Assembly (NCBI GenBank): GCA_021773215.1
Contig: JAJFKM010000012.1
Span: 4,922 to 68,921, forward strand
Direction: 5' to 3'
Source: Gammaproteobacteria bacterium
GTDB taxonomy: Bacteria > Pseudomonadota > Gammaproteobacteria > Eutrophobiales > Eutrophobiaceae
DNA length: 64,000 bases
The notes beneath the pieces were generated by a model, which saw nothing but the letters and a program-made list of their open reading frames with translations, was not told the origin of the DNA and did no database searches. Numbering within the stretch: the stretch's first letter is position 1; every line of letters begins with the position of its first letter. The position numbers were made by a program, and so were the translations under genes. Shown piece after piece: positions 2,312-57,091 of this stretch.

Positions 2312-3496
2312 TTATCCTTTTTGATCAACAGGTATTGTTATCGAACCTGCTTCGGGGGATACCTTCATTCCTGCTCTAACACGTTGAATTCCATTTATGA
2401 TAATCCTGTCTTCCTTATTTAGTCCGGAACGGATAACGCGTAAGCCATCTTGCGTGTTTCCAGGTTTAATTTGGCGACGCTCAACAGTATCGTTTTCATC
2501 CAGTACGTAAACAAAACGTATAGTCTGATCAACACTGATCGCAGAATCAGGAATGAGTAATGCTTCATAAGGACCTTCACCCAAAAGTTTTACATCCGCG
2601 AACATGCCGGGTATGAGGAGGTATTCCGGGTTTTCGACTATTGCTCGACCACGCATCGTCCCGGTGGCCAGATCAATTTGATTGTCAACAAAGTCCATTT
2701 TGCCTTTATGCAAATACTCTTCTTCATCGGCAAGACGCAGCAATACCGGATTAGGTGTCATGCGCGAACTTTTACGAGTACCGGCCATGTCCATGCGCGT
2801 GTAATGTAAGACACTTTGTTCATCCGCTGTGAAATAAACGTAAATAGGATCAAGAGAAACAATGGTGGTTAATAAACTGGAATCGAAATCACCACCCGTC
2901 ACCAGATTTCCTTTAGTTATACGGGTACGACTAATACGACCATTTATGGGTGATTTAATATGCGTAAACTCTACATTTAACCCTGCCGCTTTTATCGCTG
3001 CCTTTGTCGATTCTAATGCTGCAATTGCAACGCGTTTCTGACTTCCGCGTGAATCGAGTTCTTCTTCTGAAATTGCTCGCGATTTGTATAATTTTTCTGC
3101 TCTTGTCAGATCATTTTCAGCAAGTTCAAGCGCTGCTTTAGCACGGGTTAATTCAGCCTTGGCTTGATCCAGAATGGCTTGATAAGGGCGTGGGTCAATC
3201 ACATAGAGCAAATCGCCAGCCTTTACTAAACTCCCTTCTTCAAAATAGATAGATTGTAAGTAACCACTTACTCTTGGTCGTATTTCAACAGATTCAACCG
3301 CATAGAGCCTACCGGTAAATTCATCCCAATCGGTGACATCGTTAATCAGAGGCGTCGCCACTGTTACCTGTGGGGCTGGTTGTTCGGGAGGTGGCACTTG
3401 TGAGGAATCTTTTTCACAAGCCACAAGCATCATCAAGATAAACGTAAATAGGATACGTGCCTGATATATAGGATGACTTATAAATAATTTGTTCAT
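2312..3496 (-). CDS. RND efflux periplasmic adaptor (membrane fusion protein, AcrA-like lipoprotein)
   Basis: 394-aa ORF with a signal peptide and lipobox (LMMLVAC), coiled-coil hairpin region and beta-barrel domain typical of MFPs. It sits immediately upstream of the RND permease on the same strand. Confidence 0.85.
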   Translation of the reverse strand: MNKLFISHPIYQARILFTFILMMLVACEKDSSQVPPPEQPAPQVTVATPLINDVTDWDEFTGRLYAVESVEIRPRVSGYLQSIYFEEGSLVKAGDLLYVIDPRPYQAILDQAKAELTRAKAALELAENDLTRAEKLYKSRAISEEELDSRGSQKRVAIAALESTKAAIKAAGLNVEFTHIKSPINGRISRTRITKGNLVTGGDFDSSLLTTIVSLDPIYVYFTADEQSVLHYTRMDMAGTRKSSRMTPNPVLLRLADEEEYLHKGKMDFVDNQIDLATGTMRGRAIVENPEYLLIPGMFADVKLLGEGPYEALLIPDSAISVDQTIRFVYVLDENDTVERRQIKPGNTQDGLRVIRSGLNKEDRIIINGIQRVRAGMKVSPEAGSITIPVDQKG

Positions 3497-9590: not shown

Positions 9591-12368
9591 ATGGATAAAA
9601 CCTATAAGCCCGAAACAATAGAAGCCAATTGCTACGAGAATTGGGAGAAGAAAAATTACTTCGCGCCCGGAAACGATAGCGAGGAATCCTATTGCATCAT
9701 GCTGCCTCCTCCTAATGTGACGGGAAGCTTGCACATGGGTCATGCCTTTCAACAAACCTTAATGGACGTTTTGACGCGTTATCACCGTATGAATGGCAAT
9801 GACACTTTGTGGCAATGTGGCACAGACCACGCTGGTATCGCCACCCAGATGGTTGTTGAACGTCAACTCCAGGAAAAAGATATCTCACGACATGATCTTG
9901 GACGAGAAAAATTTATTGAAGCGGTTTGGGACTGGAAAGAACACTCGGGCAATACCATTACTCGCCAATCACGCCGACTAGGAACATCAATGGACTGGTC
10001 ACGCGAGCGATTCACCATGGATGATGGTCTATCAGAAGCAGTCAAAGAAACCTTTGTACGCTTACATGATGAAGGCTTGATCTATCGTGGCAAACGTCTG
10101 GTCAACTGGGATCCCGTTTTACATACGGCGATATCCGATCTTGAGGTTATCTCTGAAGAAGAGAACGGTCATCTGTGGCACATGCGTTATCCGTTGAAAA
10201 CACCTGTTGATGGCCTCGAATATATTGTTGTTGCTACAACTCGTCCGGAAACGATGCTCGGCGATGCGGCAGTTGCAGTACACCCTGATGATGAACGCTA
10301 TAAAGACTTGGTCGGCAAAGAAGTATTGCTCCCTTTAACTGATCGTACATTACCTGTAATAGCCGATGATTATGTTGACCCGGAGTTCGGAACTGGCTGC
10401 GTAAAGATTACCCCCGCACATGATTTCAATGACTATGAAATGGGTGAACGGCATAACTTAGAAAAAATAAATATTTTTACTGTTGATGCTGCACTAAATG
10501 ATGAGGCGCCAGAGAAGTATCGTGGCATGGATCGTTATGAAGCAAGAAAACAAATCGTCACCGATCTTGAGCAACAAGGATTACTCGATAAGATAGATGA
10601 GCATAAGTTAATGGTGCCGCGTGGTGATCGCTCACATGCGGTTGTTGAACCTTATCTAACCGATCAATGGTATGTAAAGATCCAGCCGCTCGCTGATCCT
10701 GCCATCAAGGCGGTAAAAGATGGTGACATAAAATTCGTACCTGCAAACTGGGACAAGACCTATTTTGAGTGGATGAACAATATTCAAGATTGGTGTATCA
10801 GCCGTCAGCTCTGGTGGGGTCACCGTATCCCGGCCTGGTATGACGATGAAGGCAATATTTATGTTGGTCACGATGAGGCTGCTGTCAGAGAGAGAAACAA
10901 TCTGGGTGATATCAATCTCAAACAGGATGAAGATGTACTCGATACATGGTTCTCATCTGCCTTATGGCCCTTCTCTACTTTGGGCTGGCCTGATAAAACA
11001 CCAGAGCTAGATAAATTTTACCCGACGAATGTTTTAGTCACCGGCTTTGACATCATCTTCTTTTGGGTCGCGCGCATGATTATGTTCGGGCTTAAGTTTA
11101 TGGACGATGTTCCATTCAAGGAAGTATATATTCATGGTTTGGTTCGCGACGGTGAAGGGCAGAAGATGTCCAAGTCTAAAGGCAATGTGCTTGACCCGAT
11201 CGACTTGATAGATGGCATTGAGCTTGAAGAACTAATTAGTAAACGTACAAGTGGCATGATGCAGCCACAAATGGCCGCAAAGATTGAAAAAGCAACGCGT
11301 AAACACTTTCCTGACGGGATTGAATCTTATGGAACGGACTCTTTACGATTTACCTTTGCGTCATTAGCAACACAAGGTCGATTTATTAATTTTGAAACTG
11401 GTCGCATTCAAGGTTATAGAAACTTTTGTAATAAGCTATGGAATGCCGCGCGCTACGTCATAAGCAATGTAGAGGCACAATCGATTAAACTCAATGAAGG
11501 CGATATGAAGTTTGGCTTGGCTGAAAGATGGATTGCCAGCAAATTATCTGCTGCAGTCGCAGCAACACATGAAGGCATGAAAACCTATCGCTTTGATCTT
11601 GCCTCGCAAGCCCTCTATGAATTCACCTGGGATGAATACTGTGACTGGTATATTGAGTTATCCAAAACAACTTTAAATAGTACTGGGGCAAGCGAAGCAC
11701 AAAAGCGCGGCACACTCTATACATTATTAAATGTACTCGAGACCTTACAACGCGCCCTCCATCCTTTTATCCCTTTTATCACCGAAGAACTTTGGCATCG
11801 AGTAGCAGCCTTGCTTGATAAAAAAGGAGAGAGCGTCATGCTTGAACCTTTTCCAAAACCAGATGAATTTGAGACAGATAATAAGTCAGTAGAGCAAATT
11901 GAATGGATTAAATTATTTATTATGGGTGTGCGCCGTATACGCGCAGAACGAGATATATCGCCGGGGAAAACATTAAACGTATTTGTGCGTAACGGTTCAA
12001 CCGATGAGTGCCAATGGTTAGATGAACATCAGAACTATATGAAAGCGCTGGGACGGATCGATTCGATCCAGTCCACTGAAGATGATATGGATGATGCCGT
12101 TATGGCTTTAGCTGGTGAAATGACGCTTCTCGTTCCTCTAGCTGATATCATCGATCCAGAGGCTGAGAAAAAACGATTAGAGAGTACAATTGAAAAACTG
12201 CAAAAAGAGAAGTCCGGCATGGAAGGTAAATTGAACAATAAAAGCTTTGTTGAACGCGCGCCCGCAGATGTGGTCGAAGGCGTAAAGCAAAAGCTTGCTG
12301 ATAAAGCAAACGAAATTGAAACCTTTGAAACACAGCTTAAATCAATATCAAAACTACTAGAAAATTAA
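9591..12368 (+). CDS. valS: Valine--tRNA ligase
   Basis: Start chosen at [11 protein letters not shown] (E. coli MEKTYNPQDIE). Class I HMGH motif ([13 protein letters not shown]) and KMSKS are present, with a C-terminal coiled coil. The listed ORF begins 12 nt upstream at 9579. Confidence 0.95.
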
Positions 12369-20425: not shown

Positions 20426-20433
20426 AGGCACAA

Positions 20434-20557
20434 TAAAAATGCACTTTTTCTATAATAGCAGCGTCAGCTCCGTGCTCAATTCCTCATGTATTATCTATAC
20501 ATTCCGGGTTTCCGCGCGGTGCTTCCTTGCTCTTACAGAAAAATCACTATTTTTATC
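20434..20557 (+). repeat. Copy A (most divergent) of a ~124-bp interspersed intergenic repeat; ends with the AAAAATGCAC...TCACTATTTTTAT pattern
   Basis: Aligns along its full length with 37696-37819 and 50278-50401 (roughly three quarters identity to each by eye). It starts 9 nt after the Rieske gene stop. Confidence 0.6.
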
Positions 20558-20721
20558 AGTCCCTTCAAAAAAACATAGATTTCCAGCTTTAAATTAACAT
20601 TTTCGGCTAGATTACTGCTTTATATACAAAATTAATGTCATTGGTAGTTTCATCAACGACCCTGTAACACGTATAATCTCGCGATTTGATAATAAGTAAA
20701 GATCTAGGGAGATTTGGTTAA

Positions 20722-32469: not shown

Positions 32470-33627
32470 TTAATACTGTAACTGAACACCAAAAGTAAAC
32501 AAATCAACATCCCTACCAGCATAACCGCTGGCGTTGTTATCGCCGCTTATATAATTAAAATTTAATTTAGCGTTATTACCCGAGATAACGTAATTCGTAC
32601 CGATCTCAATAGAATCACTCGTTTTTGCATCGCTAGGATTATTTTCGACGTACCTGAAATAAGGTTGAAATTTACCCCAAGCAATTACCTTGGGGAATAA
32701 ATAAGCGACCGTAGCAAAAGTTGAATGGCCGTCAAACAGGCAGGAGCAACCGGCTAATCCTGCTGCGGGCGGTGTAGCTAGAGTAAAGTCAGAATGAAAT
32801 TTTTTATATTCTGCTTCGATAGTAAAAACGCCACCATCATCGAGAACAGTCTCTGACAAAACATCGAAGGTATAGCCAAAAAAGTCGCCTTGTTCAATTG
32901 AGCTACCCGAACCGCCAGATTGTTGTTGAAATGCGAAGGCAAGCGTTAACAGATTGCCTTGTTCGCCAAAATAACTAGAACTTGAGTAATAGACCGGATT
33001 GGATTCTATATCCAGAAAACTATAAGAAATGCGCGCACTGTAGAGTAAATGATTATCTTGATTACTCTGGCCTTTCAAACCATCAAATATTCCTAATGCA
33101 TAATGCACTCTGCCAGTCGTACCCCAAAACACACCGCCTTCACTTCGACCCAATGTGCCAGCGCTAGCGCCGTAACCAGAAGGAAAAAGCGGCTGTGTGT
33201 ATTGGTTCCAATTGAGTGAATAGAATGGACCATTTTTATCAATACGATCGGAAGGTACTAATGTACGACCGATCCAAACATTAATACTGGGGTTAAATTC
33301 AAACCTTGCTATAGCATCCATCATAAATGTCTTTTGATGATTCTGCTTATCGGTATTCACATAAAACTTCAGGTATTTATGTACCTGTGCTTCAAAATAG
33401 AATCGTATGCTATCAAATGAAAATTCATTATTATTATCGAAATCACTTTTTCTTGAATCAAGCTGCATGCGAATACCTGTGCCTGCAGTAAGCCACAGGG
33501 TATCGCTATGTTCGAATTTAACACCGGCAATGACTGGCGCAGTAAACATAAATGAAAGACTAGCGATTAATAGACATATAGTCCGACGAAAGAGATTGCC
33601 TGTACTTAATCTTTTTACGTGAATCAT
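32470..33627 (-). CDS. Putative outer-membrane beta-barrel porin (paralog 1 of a tandem pair)
   Basis: Signal peptide, alternating amphipathic beta-strand pattern, Gly/Ser/Tyr-rich loops and a C-terminus ending in aromatic residues (FGVQLQY). Family not assigned. Confidence 0.5.
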   Translation of the reverse strand: MIHVKRLSTGNLFRRTICLLIASLSFMFTAPVIAGVKFEHSDTLWLTAGTGIRMQLDSRKSDFDNNNEFSFDSIRFYFEAQVHKYLKFYVNTDKQNHQKTFMMDAIARFEFNPSINVWIGRTLVPSDRIDKNGPFYSLNWNQYTQPLFPSGYGASAGTLGRSEGGVFWGTTGRVHYALGIFDGLKGQSNQDNHLLYSARISYSFLDIESNPVYYSSSSYFGEQGNLLTLAFAFQQQSGGSGSSIEQGDFFGYTFDVLSETVLDDGGVFTIEAEYKKFHSDFTLATPPAAGLAGCSCLFDGHSTFATVAYLFPKVIAWGKFQPYFRYVENNPSDAKTSDSIEIGTNYVISGNNAKLNFNYISGDNNASGYAGRDVDLFTFGVQLQY

Positions 33628-33673: not shown

Positions 33674-34834
33674 TTAATACTGTACTTGAATCCCAAAAGT
33701 AACTTTATCAACATCCCTGCCAGCATAACCGCTGGCATTAGTATCACCGCTAACATAGCTCAAATTCAGTTTCGCTTTATGGCCTGAAATAACATAGTTT
33801 GAACCGACTTCAAAAGAATCACTTGATGCAGCGCCACTTGGATTATTTTCGACATAACGAAAGTAGGGTTGAAACTTACCGAAACCTATAACCTTTGGGA
33901 TTAGATAACTTACGGTAGCAAAAACTGAGTCACCATCGAACAAACAAAAACAATCTGCTATACCAGCAGCCGGTGTTGATACAGAACTAAAATCCGCATC
34001 AAAATTTTTATACTCTGCTTCAACAGTGAACACGCCTTTGCCGGGCAGTACTGTTTCGGATAACAGATCAATCGAATAACCAAAATAATCACCTTGTTCT
34101 ATAGCGCTACCACTACCGCCATCTTGATTTTGTAAGGTAAGCGCAACGGTAAATAAATCACCCTGCTCACCAAAGTAAGTAGAGCTGGTGTAATAACCGA
34201 AGTTGGATTCGACATTCAGGAAATTATAAGTGAGTCGAGCAGCATAAAGTTTATTGTTAGATTGATTACTAAAACCTTTCAGACCATCAACAATCCCCAA
34301 TGCGTAATGAAACTTGCCTGTTGTCCCCCAAAATACGCCGCCTTCACCGCGCCCCAGACTTCCCGCAGCTCCACCTAATTCAGTAGGATACAAAGGCTGA
34401 CGATATTGGATCCAATTCATACCATAAAAAGGTCCACTCATCCCGATACGGTTTCCAGGAACGACCAGGCGGCCTACCCAAAGATTAAAACTCGGATGCA
34501 ATTCAAAGCGAGCCATCGCATCAATGAGATCGGTAGAGTCATGGTTCTGCTTATCGGTATTAATACTAAACTTCAGGTATTTATGGACTTGTGCAGCGAT
34601 GTACACACGAATACTGTCGAATGACACTTCAGAATTATTATCCAAATCACTTTTTCTAGAATCCAGTTGCATACGGGCACCACCACCAATGCTTAACCAG
34701 ACAGTATCACTGTGCTCAAACTTTACGCCACTCATGACTGGCATAGTGGCTAATAAAACAGTGCTTAATATTATGAGTTTGGTGATATTACGAACGTATG
34801 TATTACGGAGGTGTTGGAATTGCACCTTAAACAT
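33674..34834 (-). CDS. Putative outer-membrane beta-barrel porin (paralog 2, roughly 60% identical to the 32470-33627 gene)
   Basis: Same architecture and colinear similarity to paralog 1 (GVKFEHSDT..., RMQLDSRKSD..., ...FGIQVQY). Confidence 0.5.
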   Translation of the reverse strand: MFKVQFQHLRNTYVRNITKLIILSTVLLATMPVMSGVKFEHSDTVWLSIGGGARMQLDSRKSDLDNNSEVSFDSIRVYIAAQVHKYLKFSINTDKQNHDSTDLIDAMARFELHPSFNLWVGRLVVPGNRIGMSGPFYGMNWIQYRQPLYPTELGGAAGSLGRGEGGVFWGTTGKFHYALGIVDGLKGFSNQSNNKLYAARLTYNFLNVESNFGYYTSSTYFGEQGDLFTVALTLQNQDGGSGSAIEQGDYFGYSIDLLSETVLPGKGVFTVEAEYKNFDADFSSVSTPAAGIADCFCLFDGDSVFATVSYLIPKVIGFGKFQPYFRYVENNPSGAASSDSFEVGSNYVISGHKAKLNLSYVSGDTNASGYAGRDVDKVTFGIQVQY

Positions 34835-37687: not shown

Positions 37688-37695
37688 GGGTACTC

Positions 37696-37819
37696 CTAAA
37701 AATGCACTTTTTTTGCGATTGCTTTGTCAGCGCCGTACTCGAATCCTCATGTATTTCACATACACTGCGGTTCTGCGTGCGTCGCTTCCTCACACTCACA
37801 AAAAAATCACTATTTTTAG
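37696..37819 (+). repeat. Copy B of the ~124-bp interspersed intergenic repeat (CTAAAAATGCAC...TCACTATTTTTAG)
   Basis: About 85-90% identical to copy C at 50278-50401 by eye. Terminal inverted repeats of 8-9 bp (CTAAAAAT/ATTTTTAG). It starts 9 nt after the gcvR stop. Confidence 0.7.
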
Positions 37820-37898
37820 AAGCACTCTAAGTAATAACAATTGCTATTATGTCTACGAGTAAAAATAAATTATTAAATAAGTGGGTAACAATTTAATT

Positions 37899-40810: not shown

Positions 40811-40885
40811 TCATTCCCGTCTCGGCTTTGTCTCCTGAGTCGCTCTACTTCCTGCATCCATGCAGACGTACGCGGGAATGACAGG
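40810..40885. repeat. REP-like palindromic element with 10-bp terminal inverted repeat GTCATTCCCG/CGGGAATGAC and an inner palindrome CTGCATCCATGCAG
   Basis: It begins at the last base of the PP2C stop, between the convergent PP2C and perM genes. Its termini share CCTGTCATTCCCGCG with the 39835-39920 element. Confidence 0.5.
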
Positions 40886-40896
40886 CGGGTAAAAAA

Positions 40897-44051: not shown

Positions 44052-44993
44052 TTACATTTGGCCGCTTGATGTGTCTTTATCTTTACCAAAGGTCTCTTTG
44101 GCAATCTCGGTAATGCCCGCTATTGAACCGATTACACTACTGGCTTCCAGAGGCATTAGTACTACTTTTGTATTCGGTGCAGAAGCAATCTCTTTTAATG
44201 CCTCGACATATTTTGTTGCAACGAAATAGTTCACAGCTTGTATATCACCTGACGCGATAGCATTAGAAACATCCGTCGTTGCCTTTGCTTCAGCTTCAGC
44301 TTGACGTTCTCTTGCTTCAGCATCACGAAAGGCTGATTCTCTGCGACCCTCTGCTTCGAGGATAGCTGCTCGCTTTTCACCATCTGCTTTTAAGATTTCT
44401 GCTTGTTTGAAACCTTCTGCTTCAAGAATATTAGCTCGCTTTTCACGCTCTGCTTTCATCTGCCGTGCCATCGAATCGACCAAGTCTTTTGGTGGAGAGA
44501 TATCCTTAATTTCAATACGTGTCACCTTAACACCCCACGGACTTGTCGCTTCATCAACTACCTTCAGTAACTGCGCGTTAATCGTGTCTCGTTGTGATAA
44601 TAATTGATCCAAATCCATTGAGCCCATCACGGTACGGATATTGGTCATGGTTAGATTCAGGATCGCACGTGTAAGGTTATTGACCTCGTATGCTGCTTGA
44701 GCGGCGTTAAGCACTTGAAAGAAAACAACACCATCGACCCTAACCATAGCGTTATCTTTCGTAATGACTTCCTGCGAGGGGACATCAACAACCGTCTCCA
44801 TCATATTCATCTTAGCGCCAATTCTATCAAAGAAAGGAATTATGATATGTAGTCCGGGTGACAATGTCCGCGTGTACTCACCGAATCGCTCGACCGTATA
44901 TTCATTACCCTGAATAACAATCGTTACCGCTTTGGTTATGACGACAAAAATAAACAGTGCTAAACAAAATATAAAAAATGCTAATCCACTCAT
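44052..44993 (-). CDS. SPFH/band-7 (stomatin-like) membrane protein
   Basis: N-terminal TM followed by an SPFH domain and a coiled-coil Ala/Glu/Arg-rich C-terminal repeat ([31 protein letters not shown]). Confidence 0.8.
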
Positions 44994-48040: not shown

Positions 48041-49522
48041 ATGATCAACGAAGCCGAATTCGACCAGCTCGCAACACAAGGATATAACCGCATCCCTTTA
48101 ATGCGTGAAGTATTGGCTGATCTTGATACGCCTCTTAGCACCTACATGAAGCTATGTGCCGCACCCTATTCCTATTTATTTGAATCGGTGCAAGGCGGAG
48201 AGAAATGGGGTCGTTATTCCATCATAGGCTTGCCAGCGAAAAAATTTATTACTGCAAATGGCAATCAAATAACGATTAATGAAAATGGTAATGTTATTGA
48301 AGAATATACAGTTGACGATCCATTAGCTGAAATAGAAAAAATCCAACAGTCCTATAAGGTAGCAGAAATTGAAGGCATGCCACGCTTTAATGGAGGGCTG
48401 GTCGGTTACTTTGGTTATGAAACAATTCGATACATTGAGCCGCGCCTATTAAATAAAAACGATAAAGACGACCCCATCGGTTCGCCAGATGTTTTACTTA
48501 TGGTATCTGATGAAGTTGTTGTGTTCGATAATCTTGGTGGCAAACTTTTCATTATTGTTCATGCCGACCCGAGTAATGCTGACGCTTTTAAAATCGCACA
48601 CCAACGCCTAGACGAACTCGTCGATACATTAGCCAATAAACATATCGATAAAACAAAATCGAACGGTTCTCGCACCGTTAATGAAAATGATTTTGTTTCC
48701 GGCTTCACTCAAGAAAATTATGAAGCTGCTGTTGATAGAATAAAAGAATATATTGTTGAGGGTGACTGCATGCAGGTAGTCTTGTCGCAACGCCTTTCTA
48801 TCCCGTTTAAATCAGAACCGATAGATTTATATCGCGCCTTGCGTTGCCTCAATCCTTCACCGTATATGTATTTTCTTGATTTGGACGATTTTCAAATTGT
48901 CGGCTCGTCACCAGAAATACTCGTGCGCCTTGAAGATGACATGGTAACCGTTAGACCGATAGCTGGCACACGTCCGCGTGGGAAGACTGAAGAAGAAGAT
49001 ACAGCGCTTGAAAAAGAACTCTTAGCCGATCCAAAAGAATTAGCTGAACATTTGATGTTGATAGATTTAGGTCGTAACGATGCTGGTCGTGTTGCCGAAA
49101 TGGGTAGCGTGACATTGACCGACAAAATGATCATTGAGCGTTACTCTCATGTCATGCATATCGTCTCAAACGTTACTGGAAAATTAATCAATGGCATGAG
49201 TGCAATTGATGTTTTGCGTGCCACCTTCCCTGCAGGGACCGTCTCTGGCGCACCAAAGATTCGCGCTATGGAGATTATTGATGAACTGGAACCAGTAAAA
49301 CGTGGTGTTTATTCGGGTGCGGTCGGTTATTTATCATGGAATGGTAATATGGATACAGCGATCGCTATACGCACCGCTGTTATAAAAGATAAGACCTTGC
49401 ATATACAGGCAGGCGCAGGCATTGTCGCCGACTCAGTTCCCCGAAATGAATGGGATGAAACCATGAACAAAGGCCGTGCTATTTTTAGGGCCGTTACTCT
49501 GGCAGAAAAAGGATTAACTTAA
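48041..49522 (+). CDS. trpE: Anthranilate synthase component I
   Basis: Chorismate-binding domain with the Trp-feedback motif LFESV. Length 493 aa. Confidence 0.9.
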
Positions 49523-49528
49523 GATATT

Positions 49529-49667
49529 GCCACAGAGGACACGGAGTGCACAGAGGGTTAAGATCTTTAATGTATTTGGTTTAAAAATGAACTACAAAAA
49601 TAACAGTTTAATTAAATTATGATTTTTTATATTTATTTTCCTCTGTGTTCTCCGTGTCCTCTGTGGC
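49529..49667. repeat. 139-bp element between trpE and trpG: 28-bp near-perfect inverted repeats (26/28) GCCACAGAGGACACGGAGTGCACAGAGG / CCTCTGTGTTCTCCGTGTCCTCTGTGGC flanking an AT-rich 83-bp core; MITE-like or integration scar
   Basis: Inverted repeats read directly at 49529-49556 and 49640-49667. It starts 7 nt after the trpE stop and ends 23 nt before the trpG start. Confidence 0.6.
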
Positions 49668-49690
49668 TAATTAATATAGAGTAAATAGTT

Positions 49691-50272
49691 ATGTTATTAA
49701 TGATCGACAATTATGATTCCTTTACCTACAACCTGGTCCAGTATTTTGGTGAGCTGGGGCAAGAGGTAGATGTCTATCGTAATGATAAAATCTCAATAGC
49801 CGAAATAGAAAAACTGGCACCAGAACATCTCGTTATTTCACCGGGGCCATGTACCCCGAATGAAGCCGGTATATCCATTGATGTGATTAATCATTTCAAG
49901 GGAAAAATCCCATTACTAGGTGTTTGTCTTGGTCACCAGAGCATTGGTCAGGCCTTTGGCGGCAAAGTTGTTCATGCACATGATATTATGCATGGCAAGA
50001 CATCAGACATTTATCACAACAACACCGATGTTTTTAAAGGTTTTGAAAATCCTTTTACTGCCACACGTTATCATTCATTGGTTGTTGAAAAAGAATCATT
50101 GCCTGATTGTTTTGAAATTACTGCATGGACACAAAATAAAAATGGCGAGATGGATGAAATCATGGGTCTGCGACATAAAGAACTTGCTCTATCTGGCGTA
50201 CAATTTCATCCAGAGTCGATCCTTACGTCATATGGTCATGAACTTTTATCAAACTTCCTTAACAAATCTTAG
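49691..50272 (+). CDS. trpG: Anthranilate synthase component II (glutamine amidotransferase)
   Basis: GVCLGHQ catalytic Cys motif and the HPES His motif. Length 193 aa. Confidence 0.9.
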
Positions 50273-50277
50273 ATATC

Positions 50278-50401
50278 CTAAAAATGCACTTTTTTCGCGA
50301 TAGCATCGTCAGCCCCGTACTCGAATCCTCATGTATTAACATATACACTGCGGTTCTGCGTGCGGTGCTTCCTCACTCTCACGAAAAAATTACTATTTTT
50401 A
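50278..50401 (+). repeat. Copy C of the ~124-bp interspersed intergenic repeat
   Basis: It begins 6 nt after the trpG stop and is about 85-90% identical to copy B by eye. Confidence 0.7.
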
Positions 50402-50423
50402 GAATTATCTAATGGAATATGTA

Positions 50424-51446
50424 ATGGATATTCAAACTGCACTCAATAATGTCATTGCCGGTAACGATCTAAACCGTGCTGATATGCATTCCGTCATGCA
50501 AACTATTATGCAAGGTGATGCTACGCCGGCACAGATTGGTGGTCTGTTGGTTGCGCTACGCTTAAAAGGCGAAAGTGTTGACGAGATTACCGCTGCTGCT
50601 GAAGTCATGCGCGAATTAGCTAGTAAGGTTGATGTCGATAAAACAAACCTAGTTGATACCTGTGGTACCGGGGGTGATGGCGCTAATACTTTTAATATCT
50701 CAACGACATCTGCTTTTGTAGTTGCTGCTAGTGGTGCCAAGGTTGCCAAACATGGCAATCGTTCTGTTTCCAGTAAGTCTGGCAGTGCCGATGTTCTTGA
50801 AGCTGCAGGCGTAAACCTGGAATTAAATGCCGATCAGGTTGTAAGCTGTATTGAACATGTAGGAATTGGCTTTATGTTTGCCCCGATGCATCACAGCGCT
50901 ATGAAACATGCCATTGGCCCGCGTCGTGAGCTGGGCATTCGAACTCTTTTCAATGTGCTCGGGCCGCTTACTAACCCCGCCGGCGCACCTAATCAGGTAA
51001 TTGGTGTATTTAGTAATGATTGGCTCAAGCCACTTTCTGAAACTTTGAAACAACTCGGTAGTGAACATGTGCTCGTTGTTCACGCAGAAGATGGCCTTGA
51101 TGAAATCAGTATTTCAGCTAAGACATACATCGCAGAATTAAAAGACGGTAAAATTAAAAACTACGAAATTAGTCCGGAAGATTTCGGCATGAATAAACAA
51201 GACATCTCAGCATTAGCCGTCAATGGTGTTGATGATAGTTTAAGCAGAATGCAATCTGTATTAGATAACAACGATGGGGCAGCAAAAGATATCGTTTGTC
51301 TTAATGCTGGTGCTGCTATTTATGCAGCAGGCCTTGTCGATTCAATACAAGAAGGCGTATCAAAGGCACAATCAACAATAGCTTCTGGTGCCGCAAAACA
51401 AAAACTCGAACAACTTATCCAACACAGTCAATCGTTTAAACAATAA
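50424..51446 (+). CDS. trpD: Anthranilate phosphoribosyltransferase
   Basis: GTGGDG motif and the [14 protein letters not shown] region. The start is placed at MDIQTALNN; the listed ORF begins at 50412. Confidence 0.9.
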
Positions 51447-57014: not shown

Positions 57015-57091
57015 TGGCTGGGGTACGAGGACTCGAACCTCGGAATGCATGGATCAAAACCATGTGCCTTAACCAACTTGGCCATACCCCA
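57015..57091 (-). tRNA. tRNA-Gln (anticodon UUG), CCA encoded
   Basis: The reverse complement TGGGGTATGGCCAAGTTGGTTAAGGCACATGGTTTTGATCCATGCATTCCGAGGTTCGAGTCCTCGTACCCCAGCCA folds as a cloverleaf (acceptor TGGGGTA/TACCCCA, anticodon stem CATGG/CCATG with loop TTTTGAT, T-stem CGAGG/CCTCG). It is highly similar to E. coli tRNA-Gln and sits in the conserved ispE-tRNA-Gln-prs location. Confidence 0.9.

Follow-up and report, generated by a model that had tools for sequence, protein, structure and literature searches.

The 139-nt inverted repeat lying between trpE and trpG is, with a probability of about 0.7, a small non-coding palindromic mobile copy of the MITE kind, present in some lineages of an uncultured marine gammaproteobacterial group. 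The window is the whole stretch of DNA that was analysed (64,000 nt), and the loci compared with it are designated by L numbers where they have to be told apart.

The inverted repeat and its position in the trp operon

The window encodes the gene order rpe-gph-trpE-trpG-trpD-trpC, as identified with NCBIfam profiles. The features of the trpE-trpG junction are as follows.

48041-49522, plus strand: trpE, anthranilate synthase component I, with its stop codon TAA at 49520-49522 (NCBIfam TIGR00564, E = 3.9e-174)
49518-49522, no strand: CTTAA, candidate left copy of a 5-bp target-site duplication, overlapping the trpE stop (from reading of the sequence)
49523-49528, no strand: GATATT, the 6 nt outside the left arm, missing from empty sites and probably the outer end of the element (filled versus empty sites)
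49529-49556, plus strand: left arm, GCCACAGAG GA CACGGAG TG CACAGAG G (repeat finder; identical 28-mer in L001 and L002)
49557-49639, no strand: AT-rich core, 83 nt, 14.5% GC, homologous to the core of L130 and to no other core examined
49640-49667, minus strand: right arm, reverse complement of GCCACAGAG GA CACGGAG AA CACAGAG G (repeat finder)
49668-49674, no strand: TA followed by ATTAA, candidate right copy of the target-site duplication
49675-49690, plus strand: new AU-rich trpG leader with a weak Shine-Dalgarno-like GAG (49679-49681), standing in place of the ancestral 'taaggtaagacc'
49691-50272, plus strand: trpG, anthranilate / aminodeoxychorismate synthase component II (NCBIfam NF006462, E = 1.5e-100)

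The repeat finder returned two arms of 28 nt each (49529-49556 and 49640-49667), 26/28 (93%) complementary and 83 nt apart, around a core whose GC content is 14.5% against ~41% for the window. A preliminary description of this DNA had reported the same arms around a core of very low GC, and this is confirmed. The same description had the element filling the whole trpE-trpG gap; however, this gap measures 168 nt, of which the element takes 139, leaving 6 nt between the trpE stop and the stem and 23 nt between the end of the stem and the trpG start. A search for the 28-mer with up to 3 mismatches recovered the two arm sites only in the 64 kb window (0/100 dinucleotide-preserving shuffles). Each arm is composed of three tandem 9-nt units, CACRGAG plus 2 nt each (in full, GCC-ACAGAG-GA-CACGGAG-TG-CACAGAG-G), and the sole difference between the left and the right arm is one 2-nt spacer. 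No inverted repeat was detected by the repeat finder within an arm, which is a direct array of three 9-nt units. The single pairable non-Watson-Crick position of the stem is a G:U on the sense strand, and the RNA fold of the element region has a predicted energy of -63.6 kcal/mol (z = -9.85 versus shuffles).

With its outer bases the element reaches ~147 nt, and it is non-coding, its longest internal ORF having 11 codons. This core ORF (MNYKNNSLIKL, 49587-49622) shares its start with a 13-codon ORF, MTYKNAINFKIFS, in the copy of L130; it is not preceded by a Shine-Dalgarno sequence and is therefore probably a chance product of AT-rich DNA. At the borders, TTAA recurs at offsets 6 and 3 from the arms, and the flanking 5-mers are CTTAA/ATTAA in the window (a 4/5 match which, in AT-rich DNA, is not significant alone) and CTTAA/AATAA in L130. 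A plausible delimitation, read from filled against empty sites, is that the transposed unit consists of GATATT, the inverted repeat and TA, placed between CTTAA and ATTAA, with the trpE stop inside the left copy.

Elsewhere in the window, a repeat with a 33-nt period (44333-44456, ~3.4 copies), which is probably inside a coding region, two 300-nt segments sharing 73% identity (32470-32769 and 33674-33973) and a tRNA gene on the minus strand (57018-57091) were also observed.

The junction in related lineages and its neighbouring repeats

Many homologues of TrpE, at 80-95% identity, are encoded in uncultured marine assemblies. The operon was compared in the window and in nine other lineages, which share 83-90% nucleotide identity over trpE+trpG and all of which keep the synteny. 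The trpE-trpG gap is 12-27 nt long in L124, L126, L128, L129, L256, L258, L262 and L265, 217 nt long in L130 and 168 nt long in the window; among the ten lineages, window included, the junction is thus empty in eight and occupied in two. The commonest sequence of the empty site, TAAtaaggtaagaccATG, is a plain translationally coupled junction. In the second carrier lineage (L130-L132), a homologous element with the same GCCACAGAG head occupies the same site. Its core shares 86% identity with the window core over aligned columns, with many indels, and the copy is degraded: a nested insert of 52 nt interrupts the left arm, and two units are left of the right arm. Since eight junctions are tight and a homologue is present in L130, the element is an insertion that varies between lineages. 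The suggestion of a MITE-like inserted element made in the preliminary description is therefore supported by the 12-27 nt empty junctions, by the diverged L130 homologue and by copies with identical or related arms at other loci of other genomes. Conservation throughout the family with no copies elsewhere and no variation at the site, which that description had named as speaking against its reading, was not what was found.

Over trpE+trpG, the empty lineage L265 is closer to the window (identity 0.899) than the carrier L130 (0.883), although L130 is slightly nearer immediately around the junction. As L130 is not the closest relative of the window, a single ancestral insertion needs recombination or incomplete lineage sorting. 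The sequences would fit either one insertion, followed by one of these two processes, or two independent insertions at trpE-trpG.

In the ancestor of the window lineage, the element would have landed on the trpE stop codon and on the ribosome-binding site of trpG. The Shine-Dalgarno sequence of the ancestral 12-nt junction is lost, and the weak GAG is what remains. The element would have replaced this coupled junction, so that trpG would now have to be translated from its own AU-rich leader. The element is presumably co-transcribed with trpE and trpG and would then fold as a 28-bp stem in the mRNA. The most economical reading is that it would be a tolerated passenger, which may uncouple the translation of trpG and place a duplex of a size suited to RNase III in the mRNA; if the mRNA is affected at all, for instance by being cut by RNase III or by having its trpE 3' end protected, this would be a side effect. 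The known parallel is that of the Correia elements. The occupied and empty junctions constitute a natural experiment, in which a hairpin of 150 nt is placed between a translationally coupled enzyme pair. For the window itself, the outcome is mostly a clarification: its trp operon is a place struck by small mobile repeats, not a hotspot for tailocins.

A second repeat, 124-129 nt long, is present in three copies in the window (20431-20558, 37694-37821 and 50276-50404), as well as in L128 (20111-20226) and L129 (12085-12279). The different 124-bp repeat that had been described in the trpG-trpD gap is thus real, and at this place it is an insertion, since the same gap measures 14 nt in L124 and L126. 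In L129, the repeat is found at trpG-trpD without the trpE-trpG element. It is an imperfect palindrome over its full length (-33 to -36 kcal/mol), and its termini, TCCTAAAAATGCAC...TATTTTTAGAA, resemble CCTAAAAAAGCAG...TTTTTAGG, the outer termini of subfamily A of the array family described below. A third mini-element, GTCATTCCCG...CTGCATGGATGCAGGAAGTAGAGC...CGGGAATGAC, occurs in the window (40812-40893, minus strand), in L130 (about 1870-1945) and in L129 (about 2968-3035). Its inner ~50 nt are nested in the left arm of the L130 element (10286-10337) and, likewise, in the 124-nt repeat of L129 (about 12190-12240); being nested in both repeat families, it is a very small sequence with other repeats among its insertion sites. 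The view that the trp operon has collected two unrelated elements therefore stands insofar as they belong to different families, but both are palindromic, the termini of the 124-nt repeat resemble those of subfamily A and, in relatives, the third mini-element is nested in copies of both.

Other differences were observed around this operon. The gph-trpE gap of L128 (9836-10000) measures 165 nt, against 0-5 nt in relatives, and has the inverted repeat AGAGGCTATTCGG...CCGAACAGCCTCT at its ends, which suggests a small insertion of a fourth kind in the trp operon. Furthermore, a gene of the glyoxalase family lies between trpG and trpD in L262 (5088-5453), and an XdhC/molybdo-hydroxylase cluster follows trpC in L130 (13182-17555) and in L256.

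A widespread family of heptamer-array hairpins

No further copy was found in the rest of the 64 kb window or elsewhere in ~150 kb of the loci of relatives, and the search for other copies of the 28-bp repeat that had been proposed gave a single pair in the window and copies at other loci in other genomes. Of 185,579 species genomes, two contain the exact 28-mer. One is a gammaproteobacterial MAG (L002), where perfect arms enclose a 91-nt AT-rich core between pyrC and a pyrK-like gene; the other is an Anaerolineae MAG (L001), where the hairpin has a loop of 14 nt and is flanked by thrS and infC. The strict two-arm pattern was found in at least 120 metagenome contigs and the single-array pattern in at least 120 viral contigs, with <1 chance match expected for the latter. 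By BLAST against plasmid records, the arms were also identified on replicons of cultured organisms, namely Bacteroides ovatus (a 12-nt loop, in the gmd-fcl gap), B. finegoldii, Pseudoalteromonas shioyasakiensis (on a megaplasmid) and Gemmatirosa kalamazoonensis (a hairpin nested within a CGCAGAG-array hairpin). The arms are common to the copies of these other genomes, whereas the cores differ, and the window core has no homology beyond AT-richness to any other core examined except that of L130.

The family is defined by two inward-facing arrays of at least three CACRGAG heptamers at 9-nt spacing, an (A/G)CC head and a free core, all of which are found in the window element. Indeed, the arms of the latter are inward-facing arrays of 9-nt units headed by GCC, and it therefore belongs to a very widespread family. 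The end consensus, among the matches listed, reads AAAAAnnnnTTA, then GCCACAGAG..CACAGAG..CACAGAG, then AAAA. The 2-nt spacers are complementary between arms in 43 of 236 cases, and G:U and A:C pairs, relative to gene direction, are balanced (20 versus 24, no bias), in both cases among the matches listed. As spacers are rarely complementary and G:U shows no sense bias, conservation concerns the word of the heptamer and the spacing rather than base pairing. That heptamers look conserved next to free spacers and cores is, however, partly an artefact of the search, the metagenome copies having been gathered by a pattern with heptamers fixed and spacers and core free. Copies on the same contig have unrelated cores in 11 of 12 pairs among the matches listed, and the number of units per array is variable, up to ~13 (L165).

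Arrays of the viral single-array set that have a neighbour within 300 nt face inward in 19 cases and outward in 0, among the matches listed, and the arrays thus behave as polar ends. Among the matches listed, the median distance to neighbouring ORFs is 21-24 nt and 39 of 65 copies lie between co-directional genes. Single viral arrays are oriented without bias (24 sense versus 26 antisense, among the matches listed); a tandem Shine-Dalgarno or translation enhancer was rejected for them in the absence of such a bias.

Evidence of transposition within the family comes from subfamily A (165 nt, outer termini CCTAAAAAAGCAGTTA...GGTTTTTAGG), of which 14 of 21 copies, among the matches listed, have perfect 5-bp AT-rich target duplications. 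Flanking 5-mer direct repeats also peak 17-19 nt outside the arrays (27 versus 2 in a control in which each left flank was paired with the right flank of another element, among the matches listed). A few family members have flanking direct repeats of 8-9 nt, not 5 nt.

Several observations were made on the distribution of the arrays. Three or four array hairpins with different cores of 66-230 nt are found per 5-7 kb in L142 (2133-5450; four in 7.4 kb), L160 and L203, which implies a very high copy number in some genomes. In the viral contigs L003-L122, mostly of 55-65% GC, short gaps between genes commonly hold single arrays of the form TTAACCACRGAGGACACRGAGnnCACGGAGG, with up to six per viral locus (L052 and L076); the ORFs between the arrays of L076 have no Pfam match. 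The matches in L007, L015, L016 and L103 are coding tandem repeats and are unrelated. On the megaplasmid of P. shioyasakiensis A316 (L263, 1300-1700), a ~240-nt unit with an array hairpin is present as a tandem duplicate upstream of an EAL-domain gene. Other heptamers are used in sister hairpins, namely CACGGAT (L138/L139, in the flanks of a subfamily A copy) and CGCAGAG (Gemmatirosa, L264, 1395-1575), and CACAGAG-array elements sit inside these L138/L139 and L264 hairpins, i.e. as nested insertions between related array families.

Origin of the element and comparison with known systems

In the preferred reading of a mobile copy, the arrays would be end sequences that are read as DNA. The transposase reading them would be provided in trans, and it would have moved the unit into an AT-rich target and duplicated ~5 bp (CTTAA/ATTAA here). 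No transposase, and no autonomous IS or transposon with matching ends, was found in the compared loci or in the plasmid and viral collections, where partners were sought with an outer-end regular expression, as lone ends in the loci, by BLAST of subfamily A against plasmids and by a viral scan. IS1380, whose ends begin with CC, is taken as no more than a lead for the source of subfamily A. A 5-bp target duplication is documented for IS1380 (PMC3281130). Against the mobile-element model stand the single copy in the window, the lack of a matching transposase in these searches, the 4/5 match of the border 5-mers, the 8-9 nt flanking repeats of some family members and the fact that the cores of different copies are unrelated, which is unusual for MITEs derived from one master copy; strict heptamers combined with unrelated cores could mean that a function at the level of the host, and not transposition, maintains the arrays.

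In another reading, the element would be a trp RNA element selected by the host, i.e. an RNase III site, a protector of the trpE 3' end or a device uncoupling trpG, and its mobile appearance would be secondary. The very stable predicted stem (-63.6 kcal/mol, z = -9.85) is in line with this, as are its position inside an operon, like that of the thrS-infC, pyrC-pyrK and gmd-fcl copies, the G:U on the sense strand at its pairable non-Watson-Crick position, and the pairing of the window arms, which at 26/28 is far above the family average even though the core shared with L130 has diverged. Correia elements, moreover, are cleaved or protected by RNase III (PMC2649163, PMC10969869). This explanation is nevertheless unlikely, given that 8 of 10 lineages lack the element and that the stem of the second carrier is broken; family-wide, there is neither spacer covariation nor a G:U strand bias, and single viral arrays are sense in 24 cases and antisense in 26, among the matches listed. 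In a further reading, the heptamer arrays may be binding or recombination sites of a widely conserved protein (attC-like, REP/BIME-like or of the ssDNA-binding type), the inverted pair forming a DNA or ssDNA module. The conserved heptamer and 9-nt spacing with free spacers and cores, the occurrence of the heptamer in at least five phyla and in viral contigs, the sister arrays with CACGGAT (L138/L139) and CGCAGAG (Gemmatirosa), the variable number of units (up to ~13 in L165) and the strict polarity (19 to 0, among the matches listed) would all agree with protein sites of this kind, which we still consider improbable: no candidate protein was found, the 5-bp duplications around whole units of subfamily A point to transposition, and the fact that close relatives differ in having the element speaks against a site essential to the host.

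The preliminary description had further proposed that the repeat could be the scar or attachment region of a larger element, by analogy with Pseudomonas, and had asked for a comparison of the junction in relatives for tailocin or phage cargo. The rpe-gph-trpE...trpG-trpD-trpC order of the window is Pseudomonas-like, and Pseudomonas aeruginosa has its R/F pyocin cluster in the trpE-trpG interval. However, no gene is present between trpE and trpG in any of the nine other lineages; the empty site is the coupled junction TAAtaaggtaagaccATG, elements of the same kind sit at unrelated junctions elsewhere, and no integrase, tRNA or direct-repeat att structure was found at the site. As no sampled relative has cargo genes at trpE-trpG, the reading as a tailocin or prophage scar at an integration hotspot is unsupported, and we regard it as the least probable of all. 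An intrinsic, possibly bidirectional, terminator or an attenuator between trpE and trpG is very improbable as well. The long G+C-containing stem and the family consensus, with A-runs upstream and T-runs downstream (AAAAAnnnnTTA before and TAAnnnnTTTTT after GCCAC...GTGGC), would suit a terminator, but no T-run follows the window stem on either strand, the terminator scan of 49300-50500 returned zero sites, and trpG, trpD and trpC lie downstream without any sigma-70-like promoter match on the sense strand.

Several known binding arrays were also considered. A TRAP site needs 9-11 (G/U)AG triplets with 2-3 nt spacers, and a TRAP-binding array was rejected, as GAG recurs every 9 nt (6-nt spacers) and three times per arm. 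A CsrA-binding array was rejected because most units read AGAG, not GGA. The likeness of TTAGCCACA to a DnaA box, which amounts to 8/9 in the family consensus and 6/9 in the window, was treated as a coincidence.

The arms of the window element mark a large family of intergenic hairpins that crosses phyla and is unusual in design, its ends being iterated heptamers, its spacers free and its cores unrelated. No description of iterated-heptamer ends with unrelated cores was found in Rfam or in the full-text literature, in a limited search. The gathering and E-value scans of the window and 13 loci against Rfam 15 matched no family and gave sub-threshold plant-miRNA-like matches, which are typical of long hairpins; arm strings retrieved primers and eukaryotic sequences only from full texts, which is not proof of novelty. 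A wider possibility, which we put forward tentatively and hold to be less probable than not, is that the 9-nt CACAGAG-type arrays are the recognition module of a very widespread, apparently undescribed class of bacterial and phage DNA elements, kept across at least five phyla by dedicated word-reading transposases or recombinases or by a conserved host nucleic-acid-binding protein. With arrays as recognition modules, the trpE-trpG copy would be one that is datable and can be dissected, since relatives with an empty site happen to exist for it. Should the arrays be read by a specific protein, they would represent either a new way of recognising the ends of mobile DNA in prokaryotes or a conserved intergenic signal of a new kind, and the presence of the family in cultured hosts makes this question directly testable.

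In kind, the element is ordinary; what is unusual is its architecture and its breadth. Of the traits of prokaryotic MITEs, it has the small size and non-coding nature, the terminal inverted repeats and the presence or absence at orthologous sites, whereas in place of several homologous copies in its own genome, one copy was found in the 64 kb window. As a MITE or palindromic intergenic repeat, it is akin in kind to Correia, ERIC, Chunjie and REPIN (PMC3184786, PMC3116915).

Differences from Correia elements are clear: in the Correia copies the core is conserved and includes an IHF site, and TA is duplicated, whereas the family of the window has arrays of 9-nt units, unconserved cores and probably a 5-bp duplication and spans phyla, and the window element itself is not flanked by TA on both sides (TA...TA). 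Its sequence presumably has no similarity to the Correia repeat. The likeness to the Correia elements of Neisseria (CREE/NEMIS) lies in their general plan: both are non-coding, measure ~100-160 bp and have an AT-rich core between terminal inverted repeats of ~26-28 bp, and both are placed beside or between genes, are co-transcribed and form long hairpins (PMC2649163, PMC10969869). CREE can be cut or protected by RNase III and their presence varies between strains (PMC2649163, PMC10969869).

The REP/BIME/REPIN sequences mobilised by RAYT are similar in their short conserved inverted pairs with a less conserved spacer, in their location in operon gaps and in the hairpins they form in mRNA (PMC3116915, PMC3184786). 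However, a REP unit is an imperfect palindrome with a conserved head tetranucleotide, whereas the window arm, in which three 9-nt units follow one another directly, is not a palindrome, and the element is therefore not a REP. Furthermore, REPINs have no target duplication, in contrast to subfamily A. We know of no relation between Chunjie, a MITE found in Geobacter uraniireducens, and the CACAGAG arrays. Chunjie resembles the element in the intact operon around the insertion, the AT-rich target and the very stable predicted fold (PMC3184786, PMC10969869), and differs in its 21-bp terminal inverted repeats, its 9-bp direct repeats and its conserved copies of 178-235 bp in one genome.

Integron attC sites share the conserved imperfect inverted ends, a centre variable in length and sequence and the position between co-oriented genes, but the RYYYAAC...GTTRRRY boxes are absent in that order, for which reason an attC site was rejected; moreover, no integrase or cassette array is near, and the host is a core biosynthetic operon. 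Finally, the eukaryotic class II elements Ac/Ds and En/Spm have subterminal arrays of short transposase-binding motifs, inverted in the two ends, around a variable interior. These elements are eukaryotic and much larger, and they may serve as a mere analogy for the way in which the array ends could work.
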